A model generated the notes under the pieces. It saw only the letters and a program-made list of their open reading frames with translations. It had not been told where the DNA came from and did not search any database. Shown piece by piece: positions 7,690-12,095 of a DNA stretch of 18,498 nt (the first letter of the stretch is position 1; the number at the start of each line of letters is the position of its first letter). Position numbers and translations under genes: made by a program. Source of the stretch: a virus (taxonomy: Duplodnaviria > Heunggongvirae > Uroviricota > Caudoviricetes); IMG/VR virus record IMGVR_UViG_2657245081_000006. The stretch is one strand, 5' to 3'.

Positions 7690-8183
7690 TAAGCCCCCAC
7701 GTAATTCCCTGAGAGATACCACTCTTCACCTGATGCAGCCCGCTTACTGCTTTTCCGTAAACACCGTTCACGACGCGCCAGAAAATTGTTTCGTTCTGGC
7801 TGGGAGTGGCTTTCACGGAATGCCGCCATCCACACCGTTGCAGCACGACGGTATAAGCCCCTCGACTCCAGTTCTTCAGCCTGGCGGGTCAGGCACAAAA
7901 TCACCCGGGGGTCGTTAGTGCCGACATAGAACTTGCGCACAGGTCTGGTTTCACGAACTGGTTGTGGTTCCGGCTCCTGCGCTCTCTCAGTCAGGCGCGA
8001 GAAATGTCTGCGTGTATCTCCTTCACAACGGTGAGCCACACGCCCACTCTGACGTAACTTGCTTGCTGACTGCAGAACGCGCTGCCGTGAGTAACCTGCA
8101 AAAGCATCCGCAATGTCTCCGGAAGTACAGCCCGGATGGGCTTCAATGAATTTCTGAACTTCATTCAAAATACTCATGCTCAC
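7689..8183 (-). CDS. PerC-like transcriptional regulator (N-terminal wHTH-like region plus LYRRAATVWMAAF motif), about 162-164 aa
   Basis: C-terminal ...ESRGLYRRAATVWMAAF resembles the PerC family. First codon is GTG at 8181-8183 (overlapping the O-like stop); alternative ATG at 8177. Confidence 0.55.
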   Translation of the reverse strand: MSMSILNEVQKFIEAHPGCTSGDIADAFAGYSRQRVLQSASKLRQSGRVAHRCEGDTRRHFSRLTERAQEPEPQPVRETRPVRKFYVGTNDPRVILCLTRQAEELESRGLYRRAATVWMAAFRESHSQPERNNFLARRERCLRKSSKRAASGEEWYLSGNYVGA

Positions 8184-9172
8184 CCCCTGAATCCTGCCGG
8201 GATCTGGCTGTAGTCCACGTTGTCGTAACTGGATTTGAAATATGGGTCTTCGCGTTTTTCTGTGTATGTGCTGACGGACGGCGATAAGCGCAGGGAAAGC
8301 TCATCCCATTTTTCCCGCAGCTTCGACGGGCTGAGCACGTTACGGCACCAGAACGGATCGCGGCTGACGCGGCTGTACATCTCGCAGATTTGTTTGTGAG
8401 TACGACCATCCTGCACACACATCAGGCGAATTTCGTTTGCCCAGGCTGTCCAGTTCGGTTCTTTGGGACGAACCACCTCGCCGTCACATTCGGCGGCCTG
8501 CTCGTACAGGGCGATGATTTTTTTCCAGAGCCACTGTGCGCAGGTCAAATCATCCTGCGTTCCCCACTGGCGCTTTTTAGGGCTGAATACAACCGCATCA
8601 GGATGGCGAGTTAAAAACTCCTGTTCAGCCGTTTGCGTGTCCGGTTGCGAAGCGTCCGGACGAGAAGAGGTTTTATTCTCTGTAGTAATCTCTGTTGTAT
8701 TCTCTGTAAGATCATTGGGCCATTTTGACCCGATGACAGCGTGTCGTTTTGAACCAATGGATCGTGTCATTTTGCGCCCATCCATCAGGTCACTTTGACC
8801 CGATGGAGAAGTGCATTTTGACCTGATGGATTCGTTCACTTTGACCTCTTCTAAAAGCTCACTTTCATAGTTGATCGTGTAGAAGTTGGTCATGTCACGC
8901 TTCGATTTATTGAGTTGCTCGCGACGCAAAACCCCAAGTGATTTCAGGCTTGCAAATGTGCGTTTCAGAGTGGACTCTGACCAGAACGGAAACTGCTCCA
9001 GCCACTGTTCTGTCGTGTTATAAACCCAGCGAATTCCGCCATGCTCAGTGCCTGAATTCGTTTCATTCAGCCAGTAATGAAGCTGCTGCAACACAATTGC
9101 CTCATTCAGACCAATACGGCATGCAAGATCACGATTTATCACAATGGGCTGGGATGTCATTAACAGGCTCAT
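8180..9172 (-). CDS. replication initiator / replisome organizer (lambda O-like; ori iterons inside the gene), 330 aa
   Basis: N-terminal HTH-like region, repetitive S/T-rich linker encoded by the iterons, C-terminal W/C-rich helical domain; position after cII; ATGA overlaps on both sides. Confidence 0.75.
   Translation of the reverse strand: MSLLMTSQPIVINRDLACRIGLNEAIVLQQLHYWLNETNSGTEHGGIRWVYNTTEQWLEQFPFWSESTLKRTFASLKSLGVLRREQLNKSKRDMTNFYTINYESELLEEVKVNESIRSKCTSPSGQSDLMDGRKMTRSIGSKRHAVIGSKWPNDLTENTTEITTENKTSSRPDASQPDTQTAEQEFLTRHPDAVVFSPKKRQWGTQDDLTCAQWLWKKIIALYEQAAECDGEVVRPKEPNWTAWANEIRLMCVQDGRTHKQICEMYSRVSRDPFWCRNVLSPSKLREKWDELSLRLSPSVSTYTEKREDPYFKSSYDNVDYSQIPAGFRG
8721..8851. repeat. replication-origin iterons: about 6 copies of a CAYTTTGACCYGATGG-like unit at 23-24 bp spacing
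   Basis: Copies begin at 8721 (cattttgacccgatga), 8745 (degenerate), 8768 (degenerate), 8791 (cactttgacccgatgga), 8814 (cattttgacctgatgga), 8837 (cactttgacctc). Confidence 0.75.
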
Positions 9173-9393
9173 GCCGCACCTCCGAGATGCTTCATGTTTT
9201 TTCCGGAGCGAAAGGCTATAAGCGGCATACTGACGCGGTAATTACGGCCCAGCGGTTCACAAATCACCTTCTGACATTCACGGTCAACCAGGCTAACACG
9301 TAGAACATGCCCTGCAGGCGTGGTGTACCACTGACCGGGGCGAGGACAACGGAAAGTCTGATTGGTAAATCGTTTGAAAATATTCCGGATCAT
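9169..9393 (-). CDS. hypothetical small protein, 74 aa, translationally coupled between the Rha-domain gene and the O-like gene
   Basis: ATGA overlaps at both ends (9390-9393 and 9169-9172); no family recognised. Confidence 0.5.
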   Translation of the reverse strand: MIRNIFKRFTNQTFRCPRPGQWYTTPAGHVLRVSLVDRECQKVICEPLGRNYRVSMPLIAFRSGKNMKHLGGAA

Positions 9394-10538
9394 TTGCGCC
9401 CCCTTACCTCTGAAGAGTTCAGCGACGAATGAATAAGACGGGCAAGAAATGCCGCATCGTTAATTCGGTCATACAGACTTACAGCCAGAGGTGATTCAGC
9501 TTTTTCCAGCATGGGATAAAGCTGCTGCAACCAGACCTGATGAATTGATGAAATGTAGGAATAGAGAACGCTGGCGTTATGTGCAACGTCGCTCGGTACA
9601 GCGGGCTTTGAAAGCTGTTTCTCCATCTGGTTAAAGGCATTGATGTATGCCTCTTTGAACTGGGCAGCACGTTTACCCGTGAAACCCATAGCAAGAAACG
9701 CAAAGCCGTCGCGGGTTATTTGATAGCAAGGTAGTTTGCGGCCTGTGCAATCGGTGTAATCACTCACCGAAAAATTGCGGGCAGTGAATGATGCGGAACA
9801 TTCAAGCGTGCGGATCTTTTTCAGTACATCGTCATGACGTTTGGAGAAGAAGTTGGCAACAGCCAGGGATGAAGTAACAGCCTGACCATCAACGATGGCA
9901 ATTTCAGGTTGAGTGAGGGTTGGGATCGTAGCCATGATGGCAGTCTCCGATAACAGTGAATTACCTTCACCACCGGAAACGCCAATTTCGCTGGTGGTGA
10001 ACTGAACGGGGTTGGCGTAACCGGCGTTATCGGAAACCGGCGCACCTTTCGGTGCCCCCGTCCAGCCCACCATAATTTGGGTGTGCACAGACGCAGACGA
10101 TAAAAAAGACGCTGGCGCGTCATATATCGCCGATAACATTTCCAGGACGCCAATCCCGACACCCGCTTTATAAGGTGCCTGAACAGTGTAACGTCCCGGA
10201 ATGGCAGAATCAATGTGCTGGTGGTCCTTCACACTCAACAAAATCACGCCTGAATTTCCACAAAGGACTAAAGCACTCATGCGGGTAGTCTTTGCGAAGA
10301 TAGATAACGCGCTGTGTTTCTGGCTCCCAACGAATAACATGGACATAAAGCCCTCTTCCGTCACGAAACCAGCGGTTAAGTTCCTGCACAACTCGCCCCC
10401 CACAGTCAGGTAAAGTTCTCTGTGGTTACTTACAGCCAGGTGATTTGGTAATCTGCATTCATGCCGTAACAACAGGTGTTCAGCGACGCTGACCACCAGC
10501 TGTTGCGACAAACGGTTATTTGCCGTTAAACTGTTCAT
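9390..10538 (-). CDS. protein with C-terminal Rha (phage regulatory protein Rha) domain and an unrecognised about 200-aa N-terminal region, 382 aa; alternative start at 9935 would give a 181-aa Rha-only protein
   Basis: Residues about 211-308, IVDGQAVTSSLAVANFFSKRHDDVLKKI...YQITRDGFAFLAMGFTGKRAAQFKEAYINAFNQME, are the Rha signature. ATG 10536-10538 overlaps the cII-like stop (ATGA). Confidence 0.6.
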   Translation of the reverse strand: MNSLTANNRLSQQLVVSVAEHLLLRHECRLPNHLAVSNHRELYLTVGGELCRNLTAGFVTEEGFMSMLFVGSQKHSALSIFAKTTRMSALVLCGNSGVILLSVKDHQHIDSAIPGRYTVQAPYKAGVGIGVLEMLSAIYDAPASFLSSASVHTQIMVGWTGAPKGAPVSDNAGYANPVQFTTSEIGVSGGEGNSLLSETAIMATIPTLTQPEIAIVDGQAVTSSLAVANFFSKRHDDVLKKIRTLECSASFTARNFSVSDYTDCTGRKLPCYQITRDGFAFLAMGFTGKRAAQFKEAYINAFNQMEKQLSKPAVPSDVAHNASVLYSYISSIHQVWLQQLYPMLEKAESPLAVSLYDRINDAAFLARLIHSSLNSSEVRGRK

Positions 10539-11420: not shown

Positions 11421-12095
11421 ATGAAAACAGTCCATGACATCCGGCGGTCTAACGCCAGAAAACTGAGAGATGGTGTTGGCGGGAATTCTTCCTTTGCCAC
11501 CATGATTGATCGCGAGCCAACCCAGACCAGCAGGTTTATGGGAGATGGTGCTACTAAAAATATCGGTGACAGCATGGCACGGCACATCGAAAAATGTTTC
11601 GACCTGCCTGTCGGATGGCTTGATCAAGAACACCAGACAACAAACATCACAAAAAAACCTGATGTTTCAATTACTAACAAACAAATAACGTTAGTCCCTG
11701 TCATATCATGGGTACAGGCCGGAGCATGGAAAGAAGTTGGCTATTCTGAGGTTGATTTGAGCACAGCAGAAACTTATCCCTGCCCTGTACCCTGTGGCGA
11801 AATGACTTATATCTTGCGGGTGATTGGTGATTCAATGATTGATGAGTACCGCCCGGGAGACATGATTTTTGTTGATCCTGAAGTCCCTGCCTGCCACGGT
11901 GACGACGTTATTGCATTGATGCACGATACAGGCGAAACCACCTTCAAGCGGTTGATAGAAGATGGAACACAGCGTTACCTCAAAGCATTAAACCCAAACT
12001 GGCCTGAACCTTACATTAAGATCAACGGTAATTGCTCTATAATTGGTACAGTGATTTTCTCAGGAAAACCAAGAAGATACAAAATAAAGGCCTAA
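11421..12095 (+). CDS. cI: CI-like prophage repressor, HTH plus S24 (LexA-like) autopeptidase domain, 224 aa
   Basis: C-terminal VPVISWVQAGAW...RVIGDSM...PGDMIFVD...GDDVIALMHDTGETTFKRL is the S24 peptidase signature; N-terminal HTH; no SD, consistent with a leaderless PRM transcript. Confidence 0.9.
   Translation: MKTVHDIRRSNARKLRDGVGGNSSFATMIDREPTQTSRFMGDGATKNIGDSMARHIEKCFDLPVGWLDQEHQTTNITKKPDVSITNKQITLVPVISWVQAGAWKEVGYSEVDLSTAETYPCPVPCGEMTYILRVIGDSMIDEYRPGDMIFVDPEVPACHGDDVIALMHDTGETTFKRLIEDGTQRYLKALNPNWPEPYIKINGNCSIIGTVIFSGKPRRYKIKA

Follow-up and report, generated by a model that had tools for sequence, protein, structure and literature searches.

In bacteriophage P1, a short antisense RNA, c4, is cut from the same transcript as its target, and two of its segments, a' and b', pair with complementary boxes (a2 and b2) that lie before the first downstream open reading frame (ORF) and cover its ribosome-binding site, while a further pair of boxes (a1 and b1) is repeated upstream. 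The sequence of the boxes sets the specificity of immunity, the cargo is an antirepressor-type gene, and the Rfam C4 family was built on P1 c4. The order in the immI region of phages P1 and P7, with the c4 antisense RNA followed by icd and ant, was reportedly described by Citron and Schuster in 1990 and by Biere and co-workers in 1992. Regulation by IsrK, orf45 and AnrP has also been described in the Gifsy-1 prophage of Salmonella (Hershko-Shalev et al. 2016, PMC4825925), where the promoter PisrK has been demonstrated experimentally, orf45 is translated and needed for the translation of anrP, and orf45 is conserved in its nucleotide but not its amino-acid sequence. The same study relates IsrK to seqA of phage P4 and STnc1160 to CI (PMC4825925), and the c4 and c4-a1b1 motifs have been defined in earlier work (PMC2864571). 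Here, a locus of this type is described from a stretch of 18,498 nucleotides (nt) of a Caudoviricetes genome (IMG/VR record IMGVR_UViG_2657245081_000006; hereafter, the window), in which a 382-codon ORF ends in a Rha domain.

All coordinates are those of the whole window; the long ORF and the genes of its operon lie on the minus strand, and the repressor gene lies on the plus strand. An earlier note on this DNA had described an ATG-to-stop ORF at 9390-10538 whose start overlaps the stop of a cII-like gene, and the ORF call bears this out: the ATG overlaps the stop of ymfL (ATGA, 10538-10535), a 187-amino-acid (aa) gene that matches Phage_CP76 and YmfL. Likewise, the Rha signature does occupy the C-terminal part (Pfam Phage_pRha, residues 222-307, 1.7e-30; TIGR02681, residues 213-311), and the internal ATG at 9935, which is codon 202, is indeed preceded by a GGAG (9948-9945). 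The first 200 residues, on the other hand, are not unrecognised as was stated, because Phage_ASH, several PHROGs, two Rfam RNAs and an out-of-frame DUF4222 gene all match there. Taken as a whole, the 382-codon ORF is very probably a composite reading frame that has been over-annotated as a long protein, and not a two-domain protein. In all likelihood, its layout from 5' to 3' on the minus strand comprises a 149-nt spacer, the out-of-frame DUF4222 gene, an RNA cassette and a 181-aa Rha gene, and the locus can be read with high confidence as a C4/isrK antisense switch of the P1 c4, P4 CI and Gifsy-1 isrK-orf45-anrP kind with Rha as its cargo. The switch has been inserted into an e14-like early operon, with the DUF4222 gene on one side of it and the replication gene on the other. 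No new protein module is present, and the Rha gene is an ordinary one that sits behind an antisense-RNA switch of known kind.

The RNAs were searched for with Rfam covariance models, using the gathering scores as the threshold, and terminator and sigma-70 scans were run alongside. Both Rfam RNA matches, one to isrK and one to C4 (Table 1), fall within codons 121-184 of the long ORF. The isrK match ends in an intrinsic terminator whose stems co-vary among the window, H1 and cdtI. Upstream of it, the TACACT of a promoter-like site ends 7 nt before the 5' end of isrK, in the same position as the TTGACA-17-TATATT of Gifsy-1, and relatives carry TTGACT-17-TATATT; read in the long frame, this block yields the conserved “peptide” HIDSAIPGRYT. 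The c4-a1b1 motif (Rfam RF03163) reached only 20.4 bits at 10191-10139, against a gathering score of 46.7, although its boxes are present; the gathering score is reached, or nearly so, in P4, Gifsy-1 and some relatives. The C4-type RNA folds into a long closing stem with two hairpins, and across 106 unique cassettes its 27 base pairs are 99.9% canonical, with compensatory double changes at 16 of them, so that support for the fold is exceptionally strong.

The a' loop of C4, TCCGATAAC (10034-10026), has two complements, GTTATCGG in isrK (10137-10130) and GTTATCGGA (9954-9946), and b' (ACGCCAA, 10018-10012) is complementary to TTGGCGT both in the isrK loop (10153-10147) and at 9985-9979. Specifically, a' can form 8 base pairs (bp) with a1 and nine contiguous Watson-Crick pairs with a2, and b' can form 7 bp with each of b1 and b2. 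The a2 target overlaps the GGAG that lies 9 nt before ATG 9935 and serves as its Shine-Dalgarno (SD) sequence, and this overlap holds in all aligned variants. Among relatives there are 16 types of a' and 8 types of b', each complementary to its own a1/a2 or b1/b2 (another specificity type, CCGTATGC, is found in locus L016), and the mean a'-a2 helix is 8.6 bp for cognate but 3.5 bp for non-cognate combinations. This three-way co-variation of the C4 boxes with their targets accounts for the hypervariability of the cassette between near-identical prophages and is the signature of the P1/P7 c4 immunity system. The arrangement is not confined to close relatives: of the 16 distant loci that were tested, 15 have isrK and C4 immediately before Rha, among them those of Citrobacter, Edwardsiella, Serratia, Pantoea, Erwinia, Salinivibrio, Endozoicomonas and Marinomonas.

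Rha itself is very probably made from ATG 9935, possibly also in the form of a 227-aa leader fusion from ATG 10073. The 181-aa product has the canonical Rha architecture, with the domain near its N-terminus (TIGR02681 scores 103 bits against a cut-off of 45.95), and the gene ends in a TGA that shares an ATGA (9393-9390) with the start of the gene after it. The start block, GAGGCTGCCATCATGGCTAC, is kept from E. coli to Edwardsiella, Serratia, Pantoea and beyond. In 52 close variants, variable sites fall on the three codon positions of the long frame in the proportions 70/69/73 between 10212 and 9936, whereas downstream of 9935 they are distributed 56/46/133 over the Rha domain and 24/20/58 over the C-terminal part. 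Codon periodicity thus begins only at 9935, and residues 1-201 are without selection at the amino-acid level. Stops point in the same direction. An earlier count on loci that had been picked by protein similarity was biased and was redone on loci picked solely by the Rha SD/ATG motif (90 unique cassettes); in-frame stops upstream of the Rha start are present in 8 of these, with all RNA features intact, and they lie in the -35 region, in isrK, between the two RNAs or, in five of the eight, 6-8 codons before the Rha ATG. To judge from these relatives, the long frame upstream of 9935 is apparently dispensable.

These results bear directly on the two explanations offered in the earlier note. The first, a genuine fusion with a novel N-terminal module, is not supported: there is no amino-acid-level selection on the stretch, which holds two structured RNAs together with an intrinsic terminator and a promoter-like site, as well as a gene that is read in a different frame. 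Two checks had been set beforehand for this idea, and codon periodicity over residues 1-200 gave a non-coding pattern, while homologues were found in which in-frame stops separate the two parts. The second, the loss of a stop between an upstream gene and a Rha gene that began at 9935, was half right. The Rha gene proper does start at that ATG with its GGAG, but no upstream protein gene has lost its stop, since what lies upstream is the RNA cassette, the out-of-frame DUF4222 gene and the spacer, all of them stop-free in the Rha frame, be it by chance or because they are kept so. An AlphaFold model agrees, with a predicted local distance difference test (pLDDT) score of about 25, and hence below 50, over residues 1-212, 58-79 over the Rha domain and a mean of 40, although the input alignment was shallow (at least 87% identity) and lends weak support only. 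Codon-usage log-likelihood by frame, trained on four genes of the window, was set aside as uninformative; it did not separate Rha from the RNA stretch, and the long frame was slightly positive throughout merely from its lack of stops. A sequence search of solved structures with the 181-aa Rha gave nothing below E = 0.6, and in the literature only annotation-level mentions of Rha as an antirepressor were found, with no experimental work. A role for Rha as an antirepressor or DNA-binding regulator is assigned only through the name of its family.

Upstream of the cassette, the long ORF runs over a complete DUF4222 gene, which is read in the +2 frame under codons 50-110. This gene has its own GTG start (10389), SD sequence (GGGGGG, 10401-10396) and TGA stop (10212-10210), aligns with phrog_1343 over its whole length (1-59 of 59, 1.1e-36) and has been annotated by the Prokaryotic Genome Annotation Pipeline (PGAP) in strain GB089. 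When the window type was compared with the Salmonella, Citrobacter and K-12 e14 types, variable sites in the overlap were distributed 12/9/33 over the codon positions of the DUF4222 frame but 9/33/12 over those of the long frame, so that variation lands on position 2 of the latter. Nei-Gojobori ratios of nonsynonymous to synonymous substitution (dN/dS) were 0.03-0.12 in the DUF4222 frame and 1.1-10 in the long frame. The frame under selection at codons 50-110 is therefore that of DUF4222.

Codons 1-49 of the long ORF, which form the spacer between ymfL and DUF4222, have no periodicity in any frame, the three codon positions having 23/26/27 variable sites. Hardly any change is seen across the E. 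coli, Salmonella and Citrobacter types in the first ~39 nt (10538-10500), which are followed by a variable patch. A hairpin at 10510-10462 (-25.9 kcal/mol, z -4.4) has no U-run; in single-sequence folding, the variable patch forms a strong hairpin in the window and in Citrobacter but not in Salmonella or K-12, and RNAalifold did not find a convincing shared structure in the spacer.

Table 1. Features of the immunity and early-right region of the window
Feature	Position	Strand	Basis
LexA-type repressor gene	11421-12095	+	Peptidase_S24
ymfL / cII-like gene, 187 aa	10535-11098	-	Pfam Phage_CP76 5.3e-15; NCBIfam YmfL 7.4e-50; phrog_101
382-codon ORF, ATG to stop	9390-10538	-	ORF call
ymfL-DUF4222 spacer (codons 1-49 of the long ORF)	10390-10538	-	no coding signature
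DUF4222 gene, 59 aa, complete	10210-10389	-	Pfam PF13973 9.5e-14, 51.1 bits against cut-off 27
Promoter-like site	10185-10213	-	TTGATT (10213-10208), 17 nt, TACACT (10190-10185)
isrK-like small RNA (equivalent to P4 seqA, P1 a1b1)	10102-10178	-	Rfam RF01394 61.5 bits against 50, positions 1-77 of 77
isrK boxes	b1 10154-10147; a1 10137-10130	-	complementary to C4 b' and a'
Intrinsic terminator, GACGC-GCCA-GCGTC + T6	10102-10121	-	terminator scan; 3' end of isrK match
C4-type antisense RNA (P1 c4 / P4 CI / Salmonella STnc1160)	9990-10077	-	Rfam RF01695 82.8 bits against 45, positions 1-87 of 87
C4 exposed segments	loop a' 10034-10026; single-stranded b' 10018-10012	-	fold
orf45-like leader ORF, 46 codons	9936-10073	-	ATG 10073 = codon 156, within the C4 5' stem
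C4 downstream targets	b2 9986-9979; a2 GTTATCGGA 9954-9946	-	complementarity
Rha-family regulator gene, 181 aa	9390-9935	-	Pfam Phage_pRha (PF09669) 4.9e-31, residues 21-106
74-aa gene downstream of Rha	9169-9393	-	phrog_1153 1.3e-45; weakly DUF4222-like
Replication-type gene	8180-9172	-	follows the 74-aa gene

The window is taken up by the immunity and early-right region (Table 1) of an E. coli lambdoid prophage that resembles e14, SfV and cdtI. Next after the replication-type gene on the minus strand is a PerC-like gene, and 4-nt ATGA start/stop overlaps are shared by ymfL and the long frame (10538), by Rha and the 74-aa gene (9393), by the 74-aa and replication genes (9172) and by the replication and PerC-like genes (8183), a chain that suggests an early operon tightly coupled in translation. 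DNA that matches at 90-99% identity occurs in 3,047 complete-genome records of E. coli and in 81 records of phages, for example those of cdtI, mEp460, SfV, ST64B and several Stx phages. Between the 74-aa gene and the DUF4222 gene there is a weak reciprocal similarity (phrog_1343/phrog_1153 cross-hits of 0.008 and 0.033), and these two may be diverged copies of one small gene, one on either side of the cassette and Rha; only a single copy is present in e14, which lacks the cassette. Two further loci carry tandem cassette-Rha modules with differing C4 loops, L076 (cargo ATGs at 1923 and 2789) and, on the reverse strand, L169 (1684 and 2996), and in L076 the second module starts after the first nine codons of the 74-aa gene. 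Two “proteins” of 598 and 592 aa (P0001 and P0064) probably read through two modules.

The two RNAs, their fold, the complementary boxes on both sides, the overlap of a2 with the SD sequence, the leader ATG in the C4 stem and the ATGA coupling are all observed at this locus, and the direction of regulation, in which C4 would repress and isrK would relieve, is taken from P1, P4 and Gifsy-1. By analogy with P1 c4-icd-ant and with CI, seqA and seqC of P4, C4 would be cut from read-through transcripts and would pair with a2 and b2, which would block the entry of ribosomes at Rha; the 74-aa and replication genes would in turn be kept down by polarity or termination. Following the example of Gifsy-1 isrK-orf45-anrP, the short isrK RNA would offer decoy copies of the boxes, and these decoys, together with translation of the leader from ATG 10073, could refold or relieve the block. 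With their variable a and b boxes, such cassettes may add a prophage-specific layer of RNA immunity on top of the protein repressor.

Several observations weigh against dismissing the long frame as a bystander. Upstream of 9935, 82 of the 90 cassettes are stop-free in the Rha frame, as opposed to 19 and 0 in the other two frames; the stretch from promoter to leader is, less strikingly, stop-free in 74 as opposed to 44 and 2, and that from leader to Rha in 77 as opposed to 31 and 9. Insertions and deletions in the cassette preserve the frame, and in the E. coli, Salmonella and Citrobacter types, as well as in the SfV version, it is open from the ymfL ATGA through the spacer and DUF4222, for which the chance of open first 110 codons is estimated at ~0.06 x 0.07, or about 0.004. 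In addition, an ATGA overlap such as that at its start marks every other gene junction of the operon. The promoter-like site, for its part, is a weak consensus match (8/12) that the sigma-70 scan missed: between 9100 and 11500 no promoter reached the threshold, and the cassette promoter is proposed by homology only. On these grounds, ribosomes may to some extent travel along the frame, whole or in part. An open frame alone, however, is no evidence of a protein, and openness of the leader part would be expected given that translation of the leader is functional in Gifsy-1. Because no amino-acid constraint is visible, the persistence of the frame would reflect at most selection for the passage of ribosomes and not for a protein domain.

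The alternative that survives best places control at initiation of the leader, with the 227-aa fusion from ATG 10073 as the main Rha product, so that the separate but coupled orf45 of Gifsy-1 would here have turned into an N-terminal extension. The 5' stem of C4 contains the leader ATG, which is conserved, and the leader runs on into Rha in frame here and in 93 of 105 cassettes, the rest being otherwise arranged; having no stop of its own, it departs from Gifsy-1, where the stop of the leader overlaps the start of the cargo. The excess of stop-free leaders fits this idea as well, and the homologous AUG of Gifsy-1 is used and is required for translation of the cargo (PMC4825925). Against this, no SD sequence precedes 10073 (ACCCAAATTATG), the conserved SD-ATG block and the a2 target are located at 9935, and the leader is without codon periodicity. 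Nor is the fusion required, as the leader ends 18-24 nt before the cargo ATG in five intact cassettes and is out of frame in three. On balance, the 227-aa fusion as main product is possible but doubtful, and initiation at ATG 9935 under C4 control remains the preferred account.

A different explanation for the open frame, which is speculative and on present evidence unlikely, is that it has been kept deliberately as a ribosome by-pass of RNA immunity. When the early promoter fires, ribosomes leaving ymfL would restart at the overlapping ATG and would cross the spacer hairpin, DUF4222 (in another frame), the isrK terminator and C4 into Rha; the terminator and the antisense targets would be melted, and early-operon transcripts would escape RNA immunity, which would still silence transcripts from the cassette promoter. 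As a corollary, ymfM of K-12 would be either the stump of a by-pass frame or a young overprinted gene.

Considerably less probable is translation of the whole 382-aa ORF from ATG 10538 by ribosomes from ymfL, to give a protein with YmfM-like, “Ash” and Rha parts. Its credentials include the ATGA overlap with a GGAG 10 nt upstream, the frame that stays open across host types and again in SfV with another cargo, beyond chance as it does for ymfM in K-12 e14 (about 0.003), the filamentation caused by pBAD-ymfM (bioRxiv 10.1101/2020.11.19.390815) and the listing of the protein in many databases. Amino-acid constraint is absent throughout residues 1-201, however, DUF4222 is the selected frame under codons 50-110, and the frame spans an intrinsic terminator and a promoter-like site, is interrupted by stops in the eight cassettes mentioned above and is predicted at a pLDDT of about 25 over residues 1-212. 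Moreover, distant relatives have the order DUF4222-cassette without the long frame (L089). The resemblance to YmfM is equally confined: the long ORF is not similar over its full length to the YmfM family (phrog_1170, a 112-aa protein), the match being limited to residues 47-98 against profile positions 57-108 (1.8e-10), which is the DUF4222 overlap, and the N-terminal halves of the two have only MNSLT in common.

The corresponding region of K-12 e14 (L004 3323-3681, equivalent to 10210-10538 of the window) is annotated with ymfM, a 112-aa “cell division inhibitor” that overlaps a 59-aa DUF4222 ORF. The latter is unannotated (L004 3502-3681; AAGGAG and a TTG start; Pfam 8.6e-19), and selection acts on its frame and not on that of ymfM; YmfM belongs to no Pfam family, and conservation in its PHROG is limited to the overlap. 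Expression of pBAD-ymfM leads to filamentation (bioRxiv 10.1101/2020.11.19.390815), and the published clones contain the DUF4222 ORF either complete or minus about 6 codons and had no frame controls. The filamentation phenotype of “ymfM” might thus belong to the DUF4222 protein, and the SfiC division block might then have to be credited to a different product; as a counterpoint, the ymfM frame is open beyond chance.

Databases do assign protein matches to the first 200 residues, but mistake the nature of the stretch. Pfam Phage_ASH (PF10554) matches residues 117-212 (3.6e-17, 63.2 bits against a cut-off of 26), and the 46-codon leader by itself matches at 3.4e-11; among PHROGs labelled “transcriptional regulators”, PHROG 821 spans residues 61-382, and PHROGs 995 and 3960 begin at residues 103-106. 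The positions of the Ash profile fall on isrK, its terminator, C4 and the targets, and the stretch does not evolve as protein-coding sequence, with variable sites spread evenly over the codon positions, variation explained by RNA pairing, and frames broken in Gifsy-1 and in 8 of 90 relatives. In the phage P4 record (L152), a 137-aa “cI gene product” is retained as a coding sequence (CDS) at 8168-8584, an obsolete ORF, and matches Phage_ASH at 4.3e-16. The P4 match coincides with the Rfam CI (C4-type) RNA at L152 8420-8507. The conclusion is that what Phage_ASH represents, in this locus and in P4 at least, is an RNA cassette in conceptual translation, and Phage_ASH together with PHROGs 821, 995 and 3960 appears to consist wholly or largely of translations of the isrK/C4 cassette. 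GTG 10232 was considered as a true start, as homologues elsewhere begin there, and was rejected, for this point is the promoter-like site and the module boundary; such homologues “start” just before IDSAIPGRY because the block is the boundary of a mobile module and not an N-terminus.

A genuine two-domain “Ash + Rha” protein of about 280-321 aa from GTG 10232, ATG 10280 or ATG 10340, as implied by the Pfam architecture, PHROGs 821 and 995 and two RefSeq models (321 and 296 aa) and by the treatment of Ash as a domain of the Bro/antirepressor network (PMC10111431), is the least credible reading of all, since the profile matches, the common start before IDSAIPGRY and the frame that is stop-free in 82 of 90 cassettes are set against a putative -35/-10 region at that very block, Ash positions that coincide with RNA features, the absence of periodicity, the broken frames, the P4 match to an RNA gene, and a Marinomonas locus in which the cassette is present, yet the protein-level match is confined to Rha.

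Reading the 382-codon ORF as a composite, over-annotated frame has consequences for databases, which hold thousands of proteins of the 382-aa “Ash + Rha” form. RefSeq/PGAP models of the locus differ from one another: 382 aa; 321 aa with a truncated “DUF4222 pseudogene”; or 296 aa overlapping a complete DUF4222 CDS. In the loci compared (L001 1791-2805, L002 1791-2939, L274 523-1522 and L003 1723-2871), the 382-aa CDS model is used in one genome and in phage cdtI, the 321-aa and 296-aa models are used in two other genomes, and the isrK/C4 RNAs are annotated in none. The locus recurs in over 3,000 complete genomes of E. coli and in numerous phages, and its annotation is a “Rha family protein” of 382, 321 or 296 aa, from which the two RNA genes are always missing and the DUF4222 gene often is. 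Where “Ash” or “Ash + Rha” architectures enter comparisons of antirepressor networks, an RNA element is counted as a protein domain, and what the present work contributes is the correction of an over-annotation that is widespread and of a protein family that is questionable, besides the observation on ymfM and DUF4222. Beyond annotation, many lambdoid prophages of the e14/SfV/cdtI/Stx type appear to carry P1/P4-style RNA immunity, in many specificity types, before their replication genes.

Among related prophages, e14 of K-12 (ymfL-ymfM-oweE) shares with the window the ymfK/ymfT/ymfL immunity genes, an ATGA-started frame after ymfL and a DUF4222 ORF in the +1/+2 relation, but it has neither the isrK/C4 cassette nor Rha, and its ymfM frame stops 10 nt before the next gene. 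In phage SfV, orf37 (278 aa; L275 531-1367) is the same long frame over the spacer, the DUF4222 gene and the isrK/C4 cassette, and its cargo, an ORF of 76 aa after the conserved MATVPAL start, lacks a Rha domain, which makes the cassette modular as regards cargo.

The closest counterpart is found in Gifsy-1, which has the same order and spacing of promoter (in the window, a promoter-like site), 77-nt IsrK with its terminator, and C4-like STnc1160 overlapping a leader that starts at the same ATGGTGGG and is followed by a2, GGAG and the cargo ATG; in Gifsy-1 as in the window, both RNA models score above their gathering thresholds. The cargo differs, being AnrP with an ORF6N domain in Gifsy-1 and Rha in the window, with no BLASTP similarity between them. 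Furthermore, orf45 terminates at the AUGA that begins the cargo, from which it differs in frame, and the isrK part, orf45 and cargo lie in three different frames, whereas the leader of the window is fused in frame. Finally, the Gifsy-1 cassette adjoins antQ in the late region, while that of the window is located in the early right operon, between cII-like/DUF4222 genes and a replication gene.

With P1, the window shares a' and b' boxes with targets both upstream and downstream, a covered ribosome-binding site and an antirepressor-type cargo. It differs in the lack of a separate icd-like ORF, in a target that lies directly on the SD sequence of Rha, in its cargo, which is Rha and not P1 Ant, and in its host element, a lambdoid e14/SfV-like prophage with a LexA-type cI. 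In the seqA-CI-seqC region of P4 (Ghisotti, Deho and co-workers; cited in PMC4825925), seqA is matched by isrK and c4-a1b1, and CI by C4; there, too, the cassette lies upstream of replication genes, and Phage_ASH, which is named after this region, matches in it. The known output of the P4 system is premature transcription termination of an untranslated leader, whereas in the window the overlap of the target with the SD sequence suggests that control is translational first.

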